DNA of 64,000 bases, taken from contig CP009479.1 of NCBI GenBank assembly GCA_000965745.1, forward strand, positions 1,056,001-1,120,000, in the 5' to 3' direction. This document shows, piece after piece, positions 35,350-55,403 of the stretch; position 1 is the first letter of the stretch, and the number at the start of each line of letters is the position of its first letter. This DNA comes from an uncultured archaeon (GTDB taxonomy: Archaea; Thermoplasmatota; Thermoplasmata; Thermoplasmatales; Thermoplasmataceae). The notes under the pieces are model-generated. The model was not told the DNA's origin. It ran no database searches and was given only the letters and a program-made list of their open reading frames with translations. The position numbers were made by a program, and so were the translations under genes.

Positions 35350-35422
35350 GCCACTGTGGCTTAGCTGGTAGAGCAGCTGATTCGTAATCAGCAGGTCGGG
35401 GGTTCAAATCCCTCCAGTGGCT
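35350..35422 (+). tRNA. tRNA-Thr(CGT)
   Basis: GCCACTG/CAGTGGC acceptor stem, GCTGA-TT-CGT-AA-TCAGC anticodon arm, GGGGG-TTCAAAT-CCCTC T arm. Confidence 0.97.
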
Positions 35423-35832
35423 TATATTACAGAATAAGTGGGTTTCTAACAGAATTAATTCGGTTACTTTTGAAGCACTTTCAGATTTCACTTTCCTGTA
35501 AGTAAAAACGAGTGATACCATGCATTTCTTTGCTATTTTCAGGTAAATTTCATGATACCACCACTATGATTTTTCTTTACCTAATTCTACTGAATCTTAC
35601 CTAAAGCAGTTCAAACAAGACTTGATGAAATACGGGGCATTAAGAGGACAACCAAATTATTACATGTCAACAAATTATATATATAGGTGACGTCAAAGAA
35701 ATAATCATTGAACATCTTTGTTTAAACCAGAAAAATCACAGTAGCTTGCTTGCAGGTGAAGGGATATAGATTGTCAAAATTAAATTTACCCCTCATGGGT
35801 AATTATGTATATATCTATTGATTGAACTAAGT

Positions 35833-37623
35833 ATGAACAGGACATCCAAAATAGTTGTTGCCATAATGGGTGTGGTCTTGTTAATTACGCCATTAAGTTA
35901 TTTTGAATATGCAAATAGACAATCCACTGAACCCGCACCAGTCTCACTTGTCCTGGGTCCTGAACTGAAAATAAGTTCCAACTCTCCTTTGACCAACAAT
36001 ACGACCATAACGCTTCAAGTCACAGCGATTGACCCCGGTGTGCTGGAGCACAAAGGGTATTTTATGCACACCTACCCTTCTGCTGAAAATGCCAGTGTGC
36101 TTCTTCTGAACACCACACTCATCAACCAAACCTCCTCCTTATTCCTCCCAGCTGAATTCTACCACATTGTGAAGCAGTGGAAGGCACTTTATGCCGGACA
36201 GCCACACGTCAATTTGCCATCACTGCAGATCAACGCTTTCAAGACTGTCAATGACAACGGTGTGCTGAGAGTATACAGCTATTACAACAATATCCCTTAC
36301 AATCCTTACAATATGGCGGAAAAACAGACCAGCAATCTAACAGTCATGAGGGGTCTGACCAATGGTACCGATGTCAATGTCACAGGTGTCAATAATGTGA
36401 CATTCTCGAACCTGAACCTTTCCACCGGCATATACTTCTCCGACAGGCCTGTTCAGGAAATGGCTGTGCAATCCCCTAAATATGATCTTCAGGCTTTGCC
36501 AGAATCTTACACTTATTACTATTACAACACCACATCCTACAAGACGTACGATTCCACACAATATGTGAATACAATATATAGCTCCCTTCCCTTAATGGCG
36601 GTACACATGTCAAATGCTGTGGCCAACGGAAAGTCACAGATAGCCTTCGGAGCATTCATCGCGTTTCAGAGTGACTCGGTAAACATGAATTCCGTGAACG
36701 CATATAATGCAACAAGCGGTCAAATTTCTACAAAAATGAGCACTTCACCATCGTACGTCCACGAGGCTAACCTTAGCGAAACATCGTATTCATCTGAGTA
36801 CAACGCAATTCCATTAAATCTTTTTTCAGGTCAGGAAAACCTCATCCTTAGAGAAAATCAGACCACTTCATATGTGGGAATCGGCAATGTCACATACACC
36901 TTCACTCATTATAATCAGTATACAGACAAGTACCAGAACGAGTACGAAAGAATCTGCCAGATCTATCCTGACGGTACTCAGAACTGCCATACAGTGTTCA
37001 TCAAGTCAACATTAGTTTCAAGGACATATGATGGAAACGGCACTATAGGCGCTATGAGTGCTGTGAACACTACTAACGGCCAACTGGTTATGTCAGCCGG
37101 ATTTTTGCCAATGTATGCAGGCAACGTACTTCAGAAGCTCATAGGCACCAGCAACGGAACAGTTTATCTCTCAACATCCACGCCGGGGAATGTAGTACAG
37201 GCATCAACTGTCTGGGCAGATACATATGGATACACCAATGCCAAAAATATCATAGGCACTGCATCAGATGCGCTGGATACCTTTTCAAGTGCGATCAGCC
37301 TCGGATTGGCCATAGCCGATATGCTATCAGCAGAAGGGATCATAGGGGAACCGGGAGAGATTGCGGACACCATAGGGCTCATTGGAGATACACTGGGAAT
37401 GACAGGTACAATTCTGGGTTTGTTCTCAAGCATAAGTTTCATAAGTGGGTCAAACTCAGCCACAATGTCATACAGTGCTACTGACTCTATTGAAATCGAG
37501 CCAGGTTCAAACTACACTGCCACATTTTACGAGAGCTACTCTCCTGTGACGTTCAATGAGAACGGCAACACATATTCATTCTACGCACCATTGAATTACC
37601 TCAACGTCACAGGGATGTCTTAA
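35833..37623 (+). CDS. Large hypothetical secreted or membrane-anchored protein
   Basis: N-terminal anchor IVVAIMGVVLLITPL; N/T/S/Y-rich with many sequons; T-rich tract after the stop. Confidence 0.8.
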   Translation: MNRTSKIVVAIMGVVLLITPLSYFEYANRQSTEPAPVSLVLGPELKISSNSPLTNNTTITLQVTAIDPGVLEHKGYFMHTYPSAENASVLLLNTTLINQTSSLFLPAEFYHIVKQWKALYAGQPHVNLPSLQINAFKTVNDNGVLRVYSYYNNIPYNPYNMAEKQTSNLTVMRGLTNGTDVNVTGVNNVTFSNLNLSTGIYFSDRPVQEMAVQSPKYDLQALPESYTYYYYNTTSYKTYDSTQYVNTIYSSLPLMAVHMSNAVANGKSQIAFGAFIAFQSDSVNMNSVNAYNATSGQISTKMSTSPSYVHEANLSETSYSSEYNAIPLNLFSGQENLILRENQTTSYVGIGNVTYTFTHYNQYTDKYQNEYERICQIYPDGTQNCHTVFIKSTLVSRTYDGNGTIGAMSAVNTTNGQLVMSAGFLPMYAGNVLQKLIGTSNGTVYLSTSTPGNVVQASTVWADTYGYTNAKNIIGTASDALDTFSSAISLGLAIADMLSAEGIIGEPGEIADTIGLIGDTLGMTGTILGLFSSISFISGSNSATMSYSATDSIEIEPGSNYTATFYESYSPVTFNENGNTYSFYAPLNYLNVTGMS

Positions 37624-37900
37624 TTACATTTTGGATACACAATTTTTCATTTTTTAAAGATTTTGAATGTTTCGCCACATTATTTGTTATGACCCTTTTC
37701 TTTGGACTTGTCCTTGAGTTCTTCTTCAAGTTATAGTCTCACAATTGAAACATAAGATCCTTGCAGGAATAATGTCTTATGGATTTCACAGAAGTATGGT
37801 CGTACGGTCATGATTAAATGAGCGCTCTATTTAAATTCACATCTGGAAAGTGATTATTTTTAACCAATCGTTTTTCTTGGTCTAGACAAGAACTTAAGCG

Positions 37901-37945
37901 TGATTCGTAATCAGCAGGTCGGGGGTTCAAATCCCTCCAGTGGCT
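37901..37945 (+). repeat. att-like direct repeat 1: perfect copy of the tRNA-Thr 3' 45 nt
   Basis: Identical to 35378-35422. Confidence 0.95.
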
Positions 37946-38008
37946 CCCTATATGGTTGTAATCAGCAGGTCGGGGGTTCAAATCCCTCCAGTGGCTCCCT
38001 ATATGGTT
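37907..38008 (+). repeat. Perfect 2 x 51-bp tandem repeat containing a second tRNA-Thr 3' copy (37958-37996)
   Basis: Unit GTAATCAGCAGGTCGGGGGTTCAAATCCCTCCAGTGGCTCCCTATATGGTT at 37907 and 37958. Confidence 0.95.
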
Positions 38009-38340
38009 GATATGCTAACTCTGGGTCCATCACAGGCCAATGAGAAGAAGATTGCAATATCTTTTGAAGGCTCAAGCAGGTATCCGGTATTGTTCCACTC
38101 CACAATTCGCATTATTTCCATTCCTGCAACCCGTTCTTCAGGCTTGGGATCATATTGGACGTGGGCAACCAGAAATATGGCCTCATTGTTATCTATTAAG
38201 TCTTTATATGACAAAGAAGATTCCCAGTACTGGTGAACTATGTCCTCAGCCTAATTCAGATCACGTGCAGTTGCTGGCATCACCATTACATTCAATTTTT
38301 CCTCTCTACCATTGTAGGGTATGGTAATTAACCTATCATT
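37999..38340 (-). pseudogene. Probable degraded hypothetical gene
   Basis: One frame IPYNGREEKLNVMVMPATARDLN*AEDIVHQYWESS...VSISTI broken by a single TAG and ending at the att repeat. Confidence 0.3.
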
Positions 38341-38399
38341 CCCTCTGTTGGAGATGGAAGCTTTAGACCGAACTGCCTCAATCGGAAAATCCGGCCTTC

Positions 38400-38765
38400 C
38401 TAAGATCCCTTTTCAGAGAGATTGATCTGCTTGAGGCCAATCTTTCTGTATACCTTGTCAGAACTGATTATCTTCTCGTTAGCGTGGATAGCATGGAAGG
38501 AGTCGAAAACTCCCACTCCCTGTTCTATCAGTTCGGCAGCAGCCTGATACATTCCGTTTTCCTCATTACATATCGCCATCACATCGATTGCTAATCTGAC
38601 AGGATCAAGATCATACCGCTTAGCCAGAAGCATCAATTCTATGTATGTTACCTCGGAAGTTGAAATGTCACCATCCTCTTCTTCCATCATTTTCCTTGCA
38701 TTCTCCTTCAACCAGTCTGATGGTTTTAACAACGCAAGAAAGAAATCAGTATCAGCGTACGTCAT
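38400..38765 (-). CDS. vapC: VapC-like PIN-domain toxin
   Basis: YADTDFFLAL, SEVTYIEL, FDSFHA and IISSDK acidic PIN residues. Confidence 0.9.
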   Translation of the reverse strand: MTYADTDFFLALLKPSDWLKENARKMMEEEDGDISTSEVTYIELMLLAKRYDLDPVRLAIDVMAICNEENGMYQAAAELIEQGVGVFDSFHAIHANEKIISSDKVYRKIGLKQINLSEKGS

Positions 38766-38988
38766 TGTAAGTTTCTTCGAGAATCTCTTTTCTCAATTCC
38801 TTTAGTGTTTTTTCCGGGATATTCTTGCCAATTTCTTCTAGGTCCTTAATTGGGTCTTCCGGCACGCTTGTCAATATGATTTTATCACCCACCCTTTTAA
38901 TGGTAAATCTGGGCCCCAGATCATCCTTGAGTGACGTTGGAATGTGGATTCTACCATTCTTGTCCATTTTGACAATTATTTTGGGCAT
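38752..38988 (-). CDS. vapB: AbrB/MazE-type antitoxin
   Basis: VKMDKNGRIHIPTSLK AbrB motif; overlaps the PIN gene. Confidence 0.88.
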   Translation of the reverse strand: MPKIIVKMDKNGRIHIPTSLKDDLGPRFTIKRVGDKIILTSVPEDPIKDLEEIGKNIPEKTLKELRKEILEETYNDVR

Positions 38989-39407
38989 TATGTGCACCAC
39001 TGTAATGTATATTTAATAATTCCCATTTTACACAAATAATGGTATTAACCACGATCATTTCCAAAAACAGATAGTAAGAAAGGACTGTGATTTAAATTGG
39101 TGGTTCCATACCTTCTGGCAGAGACCCTCTAGTGGCTCTTTATCGGGATATCGGGTCTTTCGTGTATTCTTCCTACTTAAGTTTGAACCATTATCTAATT
39201 CCTGTAAGTTTGTAAATTCAAGAATTATATATTTTCCTCTATTGGTGGGCCTTTCTGACAAATGCCAATCCGGCGGTTTTACCTTTACTAATTTGAAAAT
39301 GATTTTATGTTGAATTAACCAAATAATTCTTGTTTTCCGAATGTTGGGGATTGAATTTTTTCAATTTGCAATGATTATAAGTTTTACCAAAACATTTATC
39401 AGTTTTT

Positions 39408-39986
39408 ATGCTCATCGCATTAACGGTGAATAATCAACGCAGTTCAGGAATCCTGATATTTATCGGGATCTTCATTTTTTCTATGGCCTTACTTATTGGC
39501 GAGGCATTGAGACCTGCCTACTCTCTCAACATGTATTCCATAAGCAGTCTAGGCATAGGTACACATGGAGAAATTTTTTATTACTCCATTCTGTTAATGG
39601 GGGCCTTAATTGTAATTGCAGGAATCATTTTGTTGTCAGGAGAGAAAAAAGAAGCGTGGCATTTCACTCTCATACTTGTTGGAATCGGTTCATTTGGGGT
39701 AGGAATATTTCCCTATATCGTCAATTACCCTCCATTGCATTCTGACTTTGCCTTCTTCGCATTCATATTCGGCGGCATTACTGCCTTGCTCTTTGCGACA
39801 CACAAGGGTACGCCATTCAGGATATTCTCTCCCATTGTAGGTATCACAGTTCTGGCCTCCATCTTTCTATATGCAAGTGGAAAGCTCTATGGGCTTGGCC
39901 CTGGGGGAATGGAGCGCATGATCGTATACCCGACTCTCTTCTGGGCACTTGCATTGTCCGGGCATCTCATGAACCAGAAGGAGTGA
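39408..39986 (+). CDS. DUF998-like membrane protein
   Basis: PAYS...ISSLG, GVGIFP...LH, GPGGMERMIVYP; about 6 TM helices. Confidence 0.8.
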   Translation: MLIALTVNNQRSSGILIFIGIFIFSMALLIGEALRPAYSLNMYSISSLGIGTHGEIFYYSILLMGALIVIAGIILLSGEKKEAWHFTLILVGIGSFGVGIFPYIVNYPPLHSDFAFFAFIFGGITALLFATHKGTPFRIFSPIVGITVLASIFLYASGKLYGLGPGGMERMIVYPTLFWALALSGHLMNQKE

Positions 39987-40391
39987 TGGCATGGCCGCTC
40001 CGAATATCAAACAATTCTCAATTGCTGACTTTCTTTTAATCCGGCGAACAAAATTTCGCACACCTGCTTCATAAGAACTTATCTTATCAATGGGGAGGCT
40101 GGCAAGATACCTGCGGTAAAAAGGAGCACATCATCGCGGAATATGAGGTGAGGACCATATCCAAGGACGGGTTGGCAGGGAGAAATAGAGGTTTCAAATG
40201 TGAGCACAACAAGAAGAATTTCTGGGAAACCAAGCTCCCCCATGGGCCTACACCCAACCGTATATACACAAAAAGAAGTTTACAAACACAATAATGAACA
40301 GTGTACTCTTCGCTTTCTAAATGGGTTTGAAGACTGAGTGAAACTCCACATTTCCGCATTAGCATTTTTTATCTATTGAAGCATCTGACTG

Positions 40392-40436
40392 TGACTCGTA
40401 ATCATCAGTTCGGGTGTTCAGATTCCTTCAGTAGCT
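40392..40436 (+). repeat. att-like direct repeat 3: decayed copy of the tRNA-Thr 3' 45 nt
   Basis: 37/45 ungapped identity to 35378-35422. Confidence 0.85.
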
Positions 40437-40670
40437 TCCAGTGACCATGAAAGTCTTCTGCGGAGTAACCAACTTGTAAGCATAACCTGACAAGCCGCTG
40501 GTGATATCATGAACATCACCTCGTCCAGTTTGCATGGTCATGGTCCCGTTCCCATTGCAATCAGATAATTGCTGAACTTCGTATTCTACAATCTTAATTG
40601 ATATACAAAGTGCATAAGGATTTCTAGAAAATGTAAAGTATCCCGAATCGCATATTTAGATCTATGAGTA

Positions 40671-41889
40671 CTAGATGAGCGTTCTCTTAATTTCTATGCT
40701 ATTACAGTTTCATCCATTTTGTAGGTCCACCTGAATATGACTGGTGACCTGTTCAGCTCATCGAAATACTGGTCTATGCGTTCTTTGAGCTCTTCAAATC
40801 TCTTCACTCTTATCTCTTTCAGGAGCGTCCTTGTAATCTTGCTGAACAGCGTTTCGACGATGTTGAGCCATGATCCATGTTTGGGGGTGAACACAAACAC
40901 GAACCTGTTCGGAACGGTTGCGAGATACTTCCTTGTCTTCTCTGATGTGTGAACCCTGAGGTTGTCCAGGATCAGCCTCAGGGTTATCTCTTTTGGATAT
41001 GAGGAATCAAGCTTCTTCAGGAATCTTATGAAGTCGTCGCTATTGTGTGTTCTGGAGGTAATCTCCGTAACCTTTCCACTGTGAAGATTCAATCCTGCAA
41101 GAAGTGATAACGTGCCCAGTCTCCTGTATTCATAATCCCTCGTTACAGATGGGTATTTTCCGGGAACAGGAGGAAGCTCCTCAGATTTCAGTGACAGTGC
41201 CTGTATTCCAGGCTTCTCGTCGAATGATATTGTTATGGTATCCTTCAGGTCATCCTCTGCAGATCCGGAGTTGATAATTTCGACCTCCTTGTAAACATGA
41301 AGAATGGTTGCCATCTTGTTCTCGAAATCCTCATCCCTGTTCTCTACGTAATACCGGATCTTGTGCGGCCTGATCGCTGCAAGTGTCAGTATATCGTGAA
41401 TTGTGGAACGGCTCACGTCTCTCAATGATGGCCTGCTCATCCTTGCATGGGATGTGAGCAGGGAATATGTCCAGAGTTCATTGGGATATCCATGTTCCGA
41501 TGGTTTTGTGCAGGCAAGATTCAGGATCCATGCCTTATCGTCGTCGGTGATCCTGCGTGGCTTTCCTGGCCTTGGAAGATCAGCAAGAGCAGAATCAACG
41601 CCGAATTCTCTTAACTTGGAGAGGGTGTTCTTTACGGTGTTCTTATTTACATGGTTCTTCCTTGCTATGACTTCGTCGCTGAGATCAGCGATGTAGTCAA
41701 GAATTATTCCTGCCCTGATTACACGCCTTCTTTCCTCGCTCCTTGAATTCCTTATCTTTCCAAGATCTGCAAGCTGTTCTTCAGTGAACTTCGGTTTCGG
41801 AAAATTCCTCCTGAACACCATTTATATCCATAAGATATGAAAAGATGGTATATAATAATAGACTAATTATTAAGCGAACGATAATCTAG
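40671..41889 (-). mobile_element. IS630-family insertion sequence at a CTAG target
   Basis: Inverted ends CTAGATGAGCGTTCTCTTAAT and CTAGATTATCGTTCGCTTAAT (18/21); CTAG on both sides, consistent with TA duplication. Confidence 0.9.
40694..41821 (-). CDS. IS630-family transposase
   Basis: DLPRPGKP, SFDEKP, LILDNLRVH, TPKHGSWLNIVE DDE motifs. Confidence 0.95.
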   Translation of the reverse strand: MVFRRNFPKPKFTEEQLADLGKIRNSRSEERRRVIRAGIILDYIADLSDEVIARKNHVNKNTVKNTLSKLREFGVDSALADLPRPGKPRRITDDDKAWILNLACTKPSEHGYPNELWTYSLLTSHARMSRPSLRDVSRSTIHDILTLAAIRPHKIRYYVENRDEDFENKMATILHVYKEVEIINSGSAEDDLKDTITISFDEKPGIQALSLKSEELPPVPGKYPSVTRDYEYRRLGTLSLLAGLNLHSGKVTEITSRTHNSDDFIRFLKKLDSSYPKEITLRLILDNLRVHTSEKTRKYLATVPNRFVFVFTPKHGSWLNIVETLFSKITRTLLKEIRVKRFEELKERIDQYFDELNRSPVIFRWTYKMDETVIA

Positions 41890-43350: not shown

Positions 43351-44493
43351 TCATTGAACTATTCTTGATCTTGCCTTCTTTGCATATTCATCCGATATAT
43401 CTATTCCAACGTACCTTCTGTTTAGATCATGGGCAACCTTCGTGGTTGTTCCTACACCATTGAATGGGTCAAGAACCAGGTCACCCTTAAAACTGAACAG
43501 CTTAATTACCCTCTCCGCAAGTTTCTCAGGGAACATGGCCGGGTGTCCGAAATCTCTCATCTTTCTCTCAGGGGCGATGTTCCATCTCGCGTTTACCCAG
43601 CTCTTGAATTCTGTGCCGGTTATGTCGGATTTGTCTCTGTCGCCACGATGCTTAAGGTCTCCCTTGGAAAAAACTTCAATGAACTCCCATGTGTATTTTA
43701 GATATGGGTTGCTGGGGCTTTTCCAGCTTCCCCAGGCAGTGTATTTGGCATTGTAGTTGTTCTTCTCCCACAAAATCTCGTTTCTCCAGATCATCTTTCT
43801 CCCGGTCAGGAAATTTGAGATAATGTGGTGTACAGGTATGTAATCAGAATAGAGTGGCTGAACGTTGATTGCGATTCTGCCTCCAAATTTCGTTACTCTC
43901 ACACATTCGCCCAGTATCGTGAAAAGCTTGCCAAAGTAACTGTTCCAGTTCACTCCGTCCTCGTGGTCCTCATACTCAAGGCCGAAATTGTACGGGGGTG
44001 AAGTCAGGACAAGATCAACTGAGTTATCGGGATAATCTTTCAGAATTTCCTCTGAATCACCACATACAATCCTGTCTGCCAGCTTTTCGGGAACTTCATT
44101 GTTGCTGTCAACAAAATTGCTGTCCCTGGCATAATAGTACATCCCCCTGTTTACTGCCTTCTGCTTTCTGCCTTTTACCTTCCTTTCCCTGTTATAGTCA
44201 ACAAATGAAAGCTTACCGGCCTTTACCCCGTAGCTTCCGATTGACTCAACCTTCAGGAGCAGTTCTGTGAAAATGTTATCATGCGGAAGGCCGGCTTTCT
44301 CCACTTCAACTCCTATTTTCGACCTGAACCTGCTGATGTCCATCCTGTTGAGGTGAAGTTCAATCCCTCCATTCTGCGGTGAGATGTAGAGATCATCCCT
44401 GGAGAAAACTCTGTTGATCGAATCGATAATCATTCTCTCGGCCTCGCTGATCTCCCGGCCGATTTCAACCTCTATCTTCAGGTATTCCGTCAT
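43351..44493 (-). CDS. Beta-class N4-C/N6-A DNA methyltransferase with an N-terminal extension
   Basis: LTSPPYN (motif IV) precedes HPAMFP and LDPFNGVGTT (motif I); start at ATG 44493. Confidence 0.9.
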   Translation of the reverse strand: MTEYLKIEVEIGREISEAERMIIDSINRVFSRDDLYISPQNGGIELHLNRMDISRFRSKIGVEVEKAGLPHDNIFTELLLKVESIGSYGVKAGKLSFVDYNRERKVKGRKQKAVNRGMYYYARDSNFVDSNNEVPEKLADRIVCGDSEEILKDYPDNSVDLVLTSPPYNFGLEYEDHEDGVNWNSYFGKLFTILGECVRVTKFGGRIAINVQPLYSDYIPVHHIISNFLTGRKMIWRNEILWEKNNYNAKYTAWGSWKSPSNPYLKYTWEFIEVFSKGDLKHRGDRDKSDITGTEFKSWVNARWNIAPERKMRDFGHPAMFPEKLAERVIKLFSFKGDLVLDPFNGVGTTTKVAHDLNRRYVGIDISDEYAKKARSRIVQ

Positions 44494-44641
44494 GTTTCTG
44501 TGGCCTGAATTCACAAGCCACCCTTGCCCCCTTATGCCACAATGAGAACGCACAATTATAATAATTGCTGCTGCAATGGATTTCTGGAGTACCTGGGCAG
44601 TTGTATGCCGACATTTAAGTGTGATGATCCCCTGATCAAAT

Positions 44642-44878
44642 ATGTCCGACGAAGAAACATTCACATCGGAGGATCTCAGGAAGGATGTTGAGACCATAGA
44701 TAAAATAACAAAGGACTGGAGGCAGAAGATGGAATATCTGCCTGCAGATCAGCAGTTCGCCATGTTCAGAAGGGCAGTCAGGCACATTGAGAAAGGCATG
44801 GACCTGGTAGAGAAAATAATGTCAAAATTCATCACGGATGACGAAAATGAAACCGGGGGCGAACCAGATCAGCCTTAA
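44642..44878 (+). CDS. Small helical hypothetical protein
   Basis: 78 aa with host-like codons; TTTAA box upstream. Confidence 0.6.
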   Translation: MSDEETFTSEDLRKDVETIDKITKDWRQKMEYLPADQQFAMFRRAVRHIEKGMDLVEKIMSKFITDDENETGGEPDQP

Positions 44879-52759: not shown

Positions 52760-54049
52760 ATGGGCTTCTACGGTTTCACTTTGGAAAAGGAGCTATTCAG
52801 ACTCGATAATTCAGCATTAGATGGTGAGGTAAAGAAGAAAATCAGAGAATTCATAGATGATATAAAGTTGAAAGACAACCTCTCTGAGAACAGACTTTAC
52901 TACTATGCAGTTAGAATAAGAAAAGTTGCAGAAATTCTGGGTGATAAATGTCTAACGGCAGAAGCTCCAGATCTAAAGAGAGCAATTTCCGAGATCTCGT
53001 CAAGAAAACACAAGAATGGAATAAAATATTCTGAGAATACCATAGAAGACTACAAGATAGCAGTAAAGAGATTTTACAGATGGCTGATAAGTAACGATGG
53101 CGAGGTTCCAGAAAATGTCAAGTGGATCAAGAAGAAGAGAGTAACTAATAGGCACGTGAAACCCGATGCTCTGATCACGGAAGCTGAGATGTCACTTATA
53201 GTCCAAAATTGCAAGAATGCAAGAGATAAGGCTCTGTTCTCTTTGTTATATGATTCTGGGTGTAGGATAGGGGAATTGATGACGCTCAAGAACAAGGATG
53301 TTGATTTTGATCAGTACGGGGCGGTCCTCTCTGTTACTGGCAAGACTGGTTACAGGAAAGTCAGAGTAGTGGGTAACTCTGTTCCGTATCTAAGAGAGTG
53401 GCAGAATTCACACCCCCACAGGAATGATGAGGAATTCCGGCTATTTTGCGGAATATCTGACAACACAAGAAATAAGGCTATGACCTATGACGACTTACAC
53501 TCAGCCTTGAAGAAGACGCTAAAGAGGGCAGGGATAAAGAGAAGGATTTATCCCCATCTCTTTAGACATACTAGGGCGACAATACTTGCATCCAAGGTAA
53601 CCGAGGCACCTCTTGAAGCACAAATGGGCTGGATCCACGGATCAAGAATGACGCAAACCTACGTTCATCTGTCAGGGAGAGATCAGGATAACGCCATTCT
53701 CAAAGCATACAGTATTGACGTCAAGGACGAGGGTCTAATACAATCAGAAAGACCCTCTGCTTGTCCAAGATGCAATGAGCCAAACGATAGGAATTCGAGG
53801 TTCTGTTGGAAATGTGGTATGATTCTTGACAAGACTCTCACGAATGAGAAGCTAAAAGAGGAGGCTGACAAGATAGAGGAGAGCGTTCTAGAGTCTGAAG
53901 CAGTGGATGATACAACGAAATCAATGATTAAGTCCTTCTCGCCCGAGTACAAGGACCTTATACTTGAAGTTGTATTGAGTGATGTTTTCAAGAATTCTTC
54001 TAAGCTGGAGAAAATAAGAGAAGAATTGGCGAGAAAAGGAATGACTTGA
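52760..54049 (+). CDS. Tyrosine recombinase/integrase with a C-terminal zinc ribbon
   Basis: YDSGCRIGEL, GKTG, HLFRHTR, GW...MTQTYVH catalytic residues; CPRC...CWKC. Confidence 0.93.
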   Translation: MGFYGFTLEKELFRLDNSALDGEVKKKIREFIDDIKLKDNLSENRLYYYAVRIRKVAEILGDKCLTAEAPDLKRAISEISSRKHKNGIKYSENTIEDYKIAVKRFYRWLISNDGEVPENVKWIKKKRVTNRHVKPDALITEAEMSLIVQNCKNARDKALFSLLYDSGCRIGELMTLKNKDVDFDQYGAVLSVTGKTGYRKVRVVGNSVPYLREWQNSHPHRNDEEFRLFCGISDNTRNKAMTYDDLHSALKKTLKRAGIKRRIYPHLFRHTRATILASKVTEAPLEAQMGWIHGSRMTQTYVHLSGRDQDNAILKAYSIDVKDEGLIQSERPSACPRCNEPNDRNSRFCWKCGMILDKTLTNEKLKEEADKIEESVLESEAVDDTTKSMIKSFSPEYKDLILEVVLSDVFKNSSKLEKIREELARKGMT

Positions 54050-54207: not shown

Positions 54208-55104
54208 TCATTCTTCTATTAGATTTTCTTTCCATCTTTCATAAACCTCCCTTGGTGCTTTATAGCCTATGGCTGAGTGTAGTCTCTCGTTGTTGTAGAA
54301 TGCAATGAACCTATCAATGGTGTCATCAGCATCCTGGAATGAAGAGAACTCGAACCTTCTGATCACTTCCTTCTCAAGGATGGAATTGAAGGATTCGATG
54401 AAACCGTCCTCCTTGGGCGTTGCAGGATGGATCCTCTCATGTTCGATATGGGATGAAGCGAGAAACAGCTCCACTATCCGTGATACGAATTGAGTCCCAT
54501 TATCACTGCGGATCCTGACACTGGATATTGCCTCTATTCCCCTGTCCATGAAGGCAAAATCCATTGCCATCTTCACATCTGAAGAGGTGCAGTGGTATCC
54601 CAGGTACTTTCCGACAACTTCTCTTGTATAACAGTCAATCATTGCAAACAGGTATGCTGTCCGATTCTCTCCCTGTATGTACACATACTTGATGTCCATC
54701 TCCCAGACTTTATTCGGGTTATGAACCCTGACAATGGATTCAACCACCCTCTTTGCAGGGCTGCGGTAGTTGTATGTGTGGTTGAGAAGATGGTTCTCTT
54801 TCATGATGCGGAAGACCTTCTTCCTGTTGATCCTGTAGCCAGTGCGCTGCAAATGTTTGGTGACCTTCCTGTATCCATAGCATACAAATTCCCTTGACAG
54901 CAACTCAATGATGTCGGCAAGGACCTGATCATCGGGAATCATTATGATATCCTGGCCAACAATGCGTTCAGTCATCGATGAAGGCTTCCTCCCTCTCTTG
55001 AGATGCAATGCAGGCGATGAATGATAGAATGTGCTCCGTGGTATCCTTAGAAGTTCCAGGATTCTGGTCGTTGAGAGCCCACGTCCAGCATACTCATTGA
55101 TCAA
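54208..55104 (-). CDS. IS3-family transposase OrfB
   Basis: YGYRKV, WEMDIKY, IDCYTRE, SDNGTQF, IESFNS, YNNERLHSAIGY motifs. Confidence 0.93.
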   Translation of the reverse strand: MINEYAGRGLSTTRILELLRIPRSTFYHSSPALHLKRGRKPSSMTERIVGQDIIMIPDDQVLADIIELLSREFVCYGYRKVTKHLQRTGYRINRKKVFRIMKENHLLNHTYNYRSPAKRVVESIVRVHNPNKVWEMDIKYVYIQGENRTAYLFAMIDCYTREVVGKYLGYHCTSSDVKMAMDFAFMDRGIEAISSVRIRSDNGTQFVSRIVELFLASSHIEHERIHPATPKEDGFIESFNSILEKEVIRRFEFSSFQDADDTIDRFIAFYNNERLHSAIGYKAPREVYERWKENLIEE

Positions 55105-55403
55105 CGCGGTTTCCTCCTCGTTTTTTTATATGCTTCCTGGAGCAGTGATACCTCCAGTTCCTTCTCTGCAAGCATCTTCTTCAATCTCTCGTTCTCCTTC
55201 TTCAGCTTTCTGAGGCCTGGTTCCAAGGACCTTGTACGGGATCTGAGCCCATCCATGCCTAGTGCATCGAAGGCCTGTTTCCAACGGTAGAACATGGATG
55301 GATCCACAGAATATTTTCTGCAGGTTTCAACGACATGTCCGCTTTCTTTGATCTCGTTGATGAGTGCCAGTTTCTCTTCCGCTTTCCAGTATCTGCGAGT
55401 CAT
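55101..55403 (-). CDS. IS3-family transposase OrfA
   Basis: HTH (CRKYSVDPSMFYRWK) plus leucine zipper (LKKENERLKKML); A7 run at 55121-55127 leads into the -1 OrfB frame. Confidence 0.9.
   Translation of the reverse strand: MTRRYWKAEEKLALINEIKESGHVVETCRKYSVDPSMFYRWKQAFDALGMDGLRSRTRSLEPGLRKLKKENERLKKMLAEKELEVSLLQEAYKKTRRKPR

Follow-up and report, generated by a model that had tools for sequence, protein, structure and literature searches.

Tyrosine integrases that act at tRNA genes classically use the 7-nt anticodon loop as their overlap region (PMC8371274), and elements that stack up at such sites have been described in several lineages. In streptococci, the cis-mobilizable elements (CIMEs) and accretion products of the ICESt1/ICESt3 kind are bounded by att-type direct repeats at the 3' end of a tRNA or other gene and form tandem stacks (PMC5704250). 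In Prochlorococcus, the tycheposon islands pile up cargo at a tRNA between partial copies of that tRNA (bioRxiv 10.1101/2020.12.28.424599). Here we describe a locus of related build in a 64,000-nt stretch (the window, G000:C1:1056001-1120000) from an uncultured archaeon of the Thermoplasmataceae, whose genome (G000) is a single contig of 2.23 Mb and has no mcrA. Behind a tRNA-Thr(CGT) gene, direct copies of the 3' half of the tRNA delimit gene modules that contain no integrase. On balance, we read the locus as a site-specific accretion array of small non-autonomous integrative modules at tRNA-Thr(CGT). Its nearest known kin would be non-autonomous elements of the CIME kind and the stacking of elements in tandem at tRNA genes, as in tycheposon-type islands. 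A literature search found no description of such arrays in Thermoplasmata.

The tRNA-Thr(CGT) gene and its 3'-half copies

The tRNA-Thr(CGT) gene lies on the plus strand at 35350-35422 (ARAGORN; 70.9 bits with the Rfam tRNA model) and is intact. Its positions 29-73 (35378-35422, plus strand) constitute the putative recombination core on the attL side. The original prediction stated that this tRNA end recurs in direct orientation at 37901, 37958 and 40392 with increasing decay, and the repeat search, BLAST and nhmmer all agree with it. Half copy 1 (37901-37945, plus strand) has the complete core, identical to tRNA positions 29-73 at 45/45 nt (genome-wide E 1e-19; repeat search, BLAST). Half copy 2 (37958-37996, plus strand) matches tRNA positions 35-73 at 39/39 nt (E 5e-16; repeat search, BLAST). 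Half copy 3 (40392-40436, plus strand) is worn, with about 37/45 matches, and is found by genome-wide nhmmer with an E of 3e-4 from the core alone and of 4e-9 when the arm upstream of it is included. All three copies are in direct orientation to the tRNA gene, their wear grows with distance from it, and they are spaced at 2523+51 and 2440 nt. Half copies 1 and 2 do not count as two independent sites, since a perfect tandem duplication with a 51-nt unit (37907-38008, plus strand) accounts for both: 39 nt of core followed by CCCTATATGGTT occur twice (repeat search and sequence). The possibility that CCCTATATGGTT is a footprint of the IS630-family insertion sequence (IS) found further along was rejected, since that element ends elsewhere (40670, 41886).

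In the window and in all relatives, identity with the tRNA ends on the left at tRNA positions 29-37, inside the anticodon stem-loop as had been predicted, and on the right at position 73. The core retains the dyad of the anticodon stem, with 5-bp arms around the 7-nt loop: half copy 1 keeps TGAT-TCGTA-ATCA, half copy 3 has TGAC-TCGTA-ATCA, and the relatives show TAAT and TGAT variants. The features of att sites of the anticodon-loop class are present together, namely an identity block running to the tRNA 3' end, a core with a dyad, and flanking arms. On its 5' side the tRNA gene is next to a DUF1015 gene, and no tyrosine recombinase is found upstream of the array or inside it. The claim that the modules are integrase-free was upheld: 35423-40700 contains no integrase or remnant of one, and no similarity to any of the seven G000 tyrosine recombinases even at E 10.

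Conserved arms on both sides of the core

Directly 3' of the tRNA is a conserved non-coding segment of about 200 nt, arm X (35423-35624, plus strand), which resembles a P' arm. Half copy 1 is preceded by a second conserved segment of about 65 nt, the P-arm-like arm R (37834-37900, plus strand), with the motifs ATCTGGAAAGT .. ATTTTT .. TTTTTCTTG. Profiles of core+X and R+core were built from relatives only, with no G000 sequence, and run over the whole of G000. The core+X profile matches 35378-35624 over its full length (E 1e-55), and the R+core profile matches 37834-37945 (E 5e-25). The R+core profile also accounts for the 4e-9 match noted above, which covers a worn R arm together with half copy 3 (40340-40436, plus strand), an attR-like distal end of the array.

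In relatives, the X arm recurs after many tRNA-Thr genes and many half copies, and an R arm (about 65-75 nt) precedes every half copy for which upstream sequence is available in at least 12 relatives. Continuous R-core-X junctions, as expected between tandem elements, are present in four genomes (G019, G061, G079 and G056). Both arms are made up of short, nearly invariant blocks separated by variable stretches; the blocks are ACTTTCCTGTAAG, ATTTTCA and ACCTAATT..AATCTTAC in X, and ATCTGGAAAGT, ATTTTC and TTTTTCCTG in the alignments of R. In 16 copies of X there is no open reading frame (ORF) on either strand, no conserved RNA fold is seen (0 pairs), and Rfam reports only the tRNA. The invariant blocks, together with the lack of an ORF and of a conserved fold, suggest that the arms are protein-binding DNA. 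Two other identities were rejected: X as an RNA gene, for want of an Rfam match or a consensus structure, and X, or the arm at the tRNA-Lys sites described below, as a relic of an integrase 3' end, for want of DNA or protein similarity.

The block CTTTCC of X recurs in R as its reverse complement, GGAAAG, and in our reading of the alignments a circular form would bring the two blocks opposite one another on either side of the core. To judge from the alignments, the order tRNA-X ... R-core corresponds to the attL, attR and attP-like junctions that a tyrosine-recombinase system would have. What is new in these comparisons is that the sites appear as more than tRNA halves, with conserved arms on both sides of the core.

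The same site in relatives

The core was sought in 103 genomes of the family and occurs in 79 of them, often in more than one copy; 57 tRNA-Thr loci were read. Arrays of the same build are found at tRNA-Thr in about 14 genomes of seven genera, comprising about 20 modules. The units range from 0.96 to 5.1 kb, many being about 1-1.2 kb. At the small end, they hold a membrane protein (0.96 kb, G006), an S-adenosylmethionine (SAM) methyltransferase (1.01 kb, G016), a GNAT protein (1.08 kb, G074), cargo of unknown kind (1.16 kb, G061) and an RHH-PIN pair (1.21 kb, G018). Larger ones include units of 1.6 and 2.0 kb in G079 (an RHH-PIN pair; a methyltransferase plus VapBC) and of 2.2 and 3.1 kb in G019 (an unknown ORF plus VapBC; VapB-PIN, an ArsR-type regulator and unknowns), a 4.6-kb unit with MFS, TrmB, MBL and PadR genes (G047), and a 5.1-kb unit with a type I restriction-modification (R-M) system (G073). 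Overall, the cargo falls into toxin-antitoxin (TA) pairs, methyltransferases, GNAT proteins, R-M systems, transporters, regulators and membrane or surface proteins only. TA pairs, RHH-PIN and VapBC, recur in several relatives, as had been anticipated. Gene orientation is mixed, in the window as well as in the relatives.

The content and order of the modules vary from genome to genome. The four species of genus g1 have three different first modules right after the tRNA. In genus g4, the modules of G006 and G073 differ and are followed by one common distal flank, and G074 has a third module. The same RHH-PIN cassette stands first in G018 and second in G079, and G001 and G045 have it too. The VapBC cassette of the window is found in other module backgrounds in G019, G079 and the metagenome contig L145. 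Modules can also be mosaic: the first module of G019 resembles the module of G074 with inserts and VapBC added. The site collects genes, and the turnover of modules between relatives is fast. Serial capture had been predicted on the basis of the window, and this variation in content and order agrees with it; the further proposal of an integrase acting in trans is a matter of interpretation, and no cognate enzyme was found. When all seven G000 integrases were used as tblastn queries, none of the 57 tRNA-Thr loci gave an integrase, and the relatives do not show only deletion remnants of integrase-carrying islands without modular variation.

Age of the modules

Module 1 (35423-37900) has a counterpart at the same place in the sister species G002. 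Its single ORF is 91% identical at the nucleotide level, with a third-codon identity of 0.835, as against 0.44-0.55 for three adjacent chromosomal genes, one of which has 96% protein identity. Because of this difference, module 1 is considered young: it appears to share a much younger ancestor with G002 than the surrounding chromosome does, and to have been exchanged after speciation. It is integrase-free in both species. The DUF998 gene in the distal part of the array shows 74% nucleotide identity to G002, within the 66-82% range of the neighboring chromosomal genes; its divergence equals that of its chromosomal neighbors, and the cassette is therefore regarded as old. The prediction that the newest module is nearest to the tRNA thus holds in this comparison.

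These ages bear on the view that the modules are remnants of larger elements that accreted and then lost their own integrases, with nothing moving in trans. In archaea, integrated elements that lack an integrase have been described, the usual interpretation being that the integrase was lost, and tandem integration is also known (PMC8371274). The distal part of the array is indeed worn and diverged like the chromosome, and integrases abutting tRNA genes are common in the family, at other tRNAs (14/20 loci). We nevertheless find simple accretion and decay improbable. Neither an integrase nor a pseudogene of one is present in the roughly 20 modules of about 14 genomes, nor in the 57 loci in all; modules of 0.96-1.2 kb retain an intact cargo gene between their two arms; individual cassettes are met again at other positions and in other genera; and module 1 is young yet integrase-free in both of its hosts.

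A possible mechanism and the points against it

In the scheme that we favor, modules would be inserted serially into the segment of tRNA-Thr(CGT) that runs from the anticodon loop to the 3' end. Each module would bear an attP-like site consisting of R (about 65-75 nt), the tRNA-derived core (39-45 nt) and X (about 200 nt). After integration, the tRNA would be followed by X (attL), and the module would end in R+core (attR), or in R-core-X if another module follows. The modules would carry one or a few cargo genes and no recombinase; cutting and joining would be the work of a tyrosine-type recombinase encoded elsewhere, be it on another element, a plasmid, a virus or the chromosome. The most economical reading that we can offer is that the recombinase would act in trans. 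For the window, this would make module 1 the newest arrival, exchanged with the sister species, the distal VapBC and DUF998 genes older and worn, and the IS630 insertion later.

Several observations weigh against this scheme. An X arm is missing from module 2, and half copy 2 has neither the left arm of the dyad nor an R arm, the profile matching its core part only. Compared with G002, module 1 reaches an identity of about 0.9 over the ORF only; elsewhere in the module the value is 0.79, and over the initial 100 nt of X it is 0.63. High identity confined to the ORF means that the exchanged piece was not a whole att-to-att unit. One junction in G079 (L043 2779-2956), which divides the first module into a methyltransferase part and a VapBC part, consists of the last 9 nt of the core and X only, and does not look like a clean product of site-specific recombination. 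No cognate recombinase was found in the host genome, the 103 family genomes, viral contigs or metagenome contigs, and the same sets contained no autonomous element with a cognate integrase on this att site. Finally, a circle or an empty-site junction was not demonstrated in four sequencing runs, which consist of assembled contigs that break at the repeated cores; the genome itself occurs in soil samples of three studies. Odd contig joints in runs X6 and X1 (35436>37900, 35607>37887, 38973>37894) have short sides of 28-56 nt, two of the three being at about a quarter of the main depth; they may reflect co-occurring relatives or strains with another module order, or repeat artefacts, and are not used as evidence.

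The identity profile, the mosaic modules and the irregular junction indicate that homologous recombination between arms clearly has some part in exchange. Taken further, the R-core-X segment of about 320 bp, or the core, could be nothing but a portable patch of homology on which the host's homologous recombination acts, with no dedicated recombinase. The young segment shared with G002, which begins near the ORF and not at the core, fits this idea, as do the mosaic modules, the irregular junctions and the failure to find a recombinase. As a full account we consider it rather unlikely. Copies 1-3 of the window share only 39-45 nt, and module 2 is without X. The left limit of identity is confined to the same few positions of the tRNA in all genomes, and the similarity in R and X is concentrated in discrete invariant blocks instead of being spread evenly. 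Moreover, the R arm is recognizable at sites of the tRNA-Lys type that have a different core, which is a better fit to a shared binding protein.

Search for the recombinase

G000 encodes seven tyrosine recombinases: XerA (G000 860357); two intact integrases with a zinc ribbon and one truncated, zinc-ribbon types being located at window 52760 and at G000 896731; an integrase of 332 aa with a 3' end that extends antisense into tRNA-Pro; a broken paralogue at tRNA-Met; and one near a tRNA-Ala fragment. The SSV-type integrase domain (PF16795) was not detected in G000, and a split integrase of that type was rejected on this ground and because, in the 16 copies, stops are abundant in each of the three reverse frames that cross X and the tRNA.

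One of the zinc-ribbon enzymes is in the window, 12 kb from the array (52760-54049, plus strand; C-terminal zinc ribbon; Pfam), and had been proposed as the enzyme acting in trans on an integron-like array. We found no link between the two. Genes for SAM synthetase, an amidase, TspO and a pyridoxal phosphate-dependent (PLP) decarboxylase intervene, and no att repeats were found around the integrase. Its family is present in 42/103 genomes, with no tRNA within 1.5 kb in 27/30 loci and no R or X arms near its loci. In the two genomes where a member lies beside tRNA-Thr(GGT) (G005, G063), a search of the 40 kb retrieved gave no half-tRNA repeat. With this query, the family was not found in G002, G016, G018 and G076, all of which bear arrays. 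Directly after the integrase there is an IS3-family element (OrfA 55101-55403, OrfB 54208-55104) in a patch of low GC.

A true integron, or an integron-like platform with a resident integrase served by the 52760 enzyme, would be in keeping with the variable cassette content, the TA cargo and an integrase only 12 kb away. In addition to the findings on the 52760 family, however, no relative has an integrase at the head of its array, the genes point both ways, and no attC-like site was seen (no Rfam match; no conserved fold in X, the only arm that was folded). An integron is thus extremely improbable, and we conclude from the sequence that the locus is not one; the integron-like part of the original prediction is abandoned.

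Integrases of about 300 aa that abut tRNA genes, similar to the one at 748467 in G000 (L150-L169), were also considered. In the 14 loci mentioned above they lie against the tRNA on the opposite strand, with their 3' end abutting or overlapping it; the tRNAs concerned are Cys, Ala(GGC), Ser(TGA), Met, Lys(CTT) and Ile. None of the 20 loci is at Thr(CGT), and the 3' ends share nothing with the arms.

Three IMG/VR contigs containing the core (L147-L149) were set aside as irrelevant here: they belong to tailed phages of bacteria, are rich in GC, and have an attP that is a copy of a bacterial tRNA-Thr(CGT). These phages have the same 30-nt stretch as the archaeal core, beside an integrase. The alignments indicate that a 30-nt segment of tRNA-Thr is nearly identical in the two domains, both of which have elements that use it as an att site. 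Of two patterns scanned against metagenome contigs, the first gave no match and the second gave two contigs, one of which is another integrase-less array.

Cargo of the window and neighboring features

The cargo corresponds to what the original prediction described, namely a secreted-protein gene in module 1 and VapBC plus a DUF998-like gene in module 2 (Pfam). The ORF of module 1 (596/601 aa; 35818/35833-37623, plus strand) has its likely start at ATG 35833. The protein has an N-terminal hydrophobic membrane or signal segment and many N-x-S/T sequons, and is likely to be a membrane-anchored or secreted surface glycoprotein. It has no Pfam match, and among 5.8 billion proteins only three homologues lie outside its own cluster (62%, 35% and 28% identity).

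Module 2 (37997-40391) consists of a PIN and antitoxin-like pair on the minus strand and the DUF998 gene on the plus strand. The pair is formed by VapC (38400-38765, minus strand; Pfam PIN, E 8e-7) and a small antitoxin-like partner (38752-39000, minus strand; MraZ/AbrB-like, E 0.008), and is 77% identical in amino acid sequence to its counterpart in the G019 first module. It also has 73% nucleotide identity to a pair in contig L145, where an R+core site follows it. The DUF998 membrane-protein gene is at 39408-39986 (plus strand; Pfam, E 2e-13). Between the TA pair and this gene there is a possible worn core + X (39088-39235, plus strand), which ends in CCCTCTAGTGGCT, with TTCCTGTAAG about 62 nt later; it comes from a local alignment, and is retained as a possibility given that its nhmmer E of 0.19 in a 9.7-kb search is not significant alone. 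The corresponding gap in G002 has a significant R and truncated core between the TA pair and DUF998 (L070 6834-6915, E 2.5e-8), and contig L145 has R+core sites between VapBC, RHH-PIN and the stretch that leads up to DUF998. Because G002 and L145 have R+core at matching places, module 2 probably represents two cassettes whose dividing site has worn away. The similar size of the two modules of about 2.5 kb is coincidental in view of the range among relatives.

Just beyond the array lies the IS630-family element (40670-41886, minus strand), with a 375-aa DDE_3 transposase (Pfam) and two further copies of 99.7% identity in the genome. Contigs from three other runs of two other studies lack it and join 40670 to 41886 directly, so the insertion is recent or strain-specific; it is a later event outside the system. 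Further on, the window has a gene for an N6/N4 DNA methyltransferase (43351-44697), with no recognized restriction partner nearby. The gene is 68% conserved in nucleotide sequence in G002, at the same place beyond the array.

Other tRNA sites in the genome

G000 has a second integrase-less island, 4.7 kb behind tRNA-Thr(TGT) (G000:C1:269147-273917, L038), with GNAT, cupin and unknown genes as cargo. The island ends in an R arm and a half copy that bears the CGT anticodon of the other tRNA-Thr, and a further worn R+core is present in its interior (270120-270224, E 2e-7).

The tRNA-Lys gene is at 78610, a long way from four 3'-half copies of tRNA-Lys(CTT) (G000:C1:312926, 328612, 331269 and 1186719). 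Behind each copy comes a conserved arm of its own of about 165 nt, and the same arm follows the real tRNA-Lys gene. The Thr R+core profile matches the Lys copy at 331269 from the R-arm positions through the core, which is a different one (E 5e-6), and on the strength of this match the Thr and Lys sites may share a binding protein. A broader picture can be put forward tentatively: throughout the family, genes might be captured at tRNA anchors as single-gene cassettes with R-core-X sites of about 320 bp, with a core that mimics the 3' half of the tRNA and arms shared between Thr and Lys sites, and a dedicated recombinase encoded elsewhere might insert, excise and reshuffle them. Such a system would fill the role of an integron but would be made of other parts.

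At tRNA-Leu(CAG) (G000:C1:2068864-2071346), a 2.34-kb module is closed by a perfect 52-nt copy of the 3' part of the tRNA. It has an ORF, not annotated here, that matches the IS630-family transposase in its length of 375 aa, and its flank starts with CTATATGGGTT, close to the CCCTATATGGTT that follows half copies 1 and 2 of the window. Copies of the 5' half of tRNA-Leu are located at G000:C1:1599413-1599457 and 1183517-1183543, and what follows the former equals, in reverse complement, the arm found ahead of the tRNA-Lys half copies at 328612 and 1186719. The end of a repeated element may abut tRNA halves in both orientations.

Comparison with known systems

If a recombinase does act in trans, archaea would have in these arrays their own form of cassette capture, with tRNA genes and long double-stranded att sites in place of IntI and attC. 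They would then explain the spread of small defence, TA and surface genes between genera of uncultured Thermoplasmata. For annotation, foreign segments of about 1 kb without mobility genes would become recognizable by their R-core-X borders. The window taken alone is a modest gain, as one partly worn example of the pattern.

Integrons, including the archaeal ones, resemble the arrays in their small, variable and mostly single-gene cassettes, each with a recombination site, in the frequency of TA cassettes, and in having the newest cassette nearest to the anchor (PMC9668308). They differ in that here there is no IntI beside an attI and no folded attC was seen, the anchor is a tRNA, genes point both ways, and the sites are about 320 bp long and of a double-stranded att type with arms. 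The integrative mobile elements exploiting Xer (IMEX), which use the host Xer at dif, likewise lack a recombinase of their own and rely on an enzyme encoded elsewhere, as we suppose for the arrays. However, dif consists of two 11-nt inverted repeats around a 6-nt spacer (PMC8371274), and the core here, with its 5-bp stems and 7-nt loop, is not dif-like.

Archaeal elements with SSV-type suicidal (gene capture) and pNOB8-type integrases share the tRNA target, the identity from the anticodon loop to the 3' end and fixation in the chromosome, and integrase-less and tandem cases are on record (PMC7253208, PMC8371274). No split integrase halves border the modules here, and PF16795 was not detected in G000. 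The integrase would have to have been lost from all of the about 20 modules. In tycheposon islands, as by our reading in the window, newcomers push older elements outward and worn remnants are present, but tycheposons have their own integrase and replication genes, whereas the window modules have neither. With CIMEs the likeness extends beyond repeats and stacks to the absence of integrase and transfer genes, CIMEs being dependent on the recombinase of another element (PMC5704250). Here no cognate integrase-bearing element was found at the site. The modules are archaeal and much smaller, often a single gene of about 1 kb, have long conserved arms on both sides of the core, and recur in at least seven genera.

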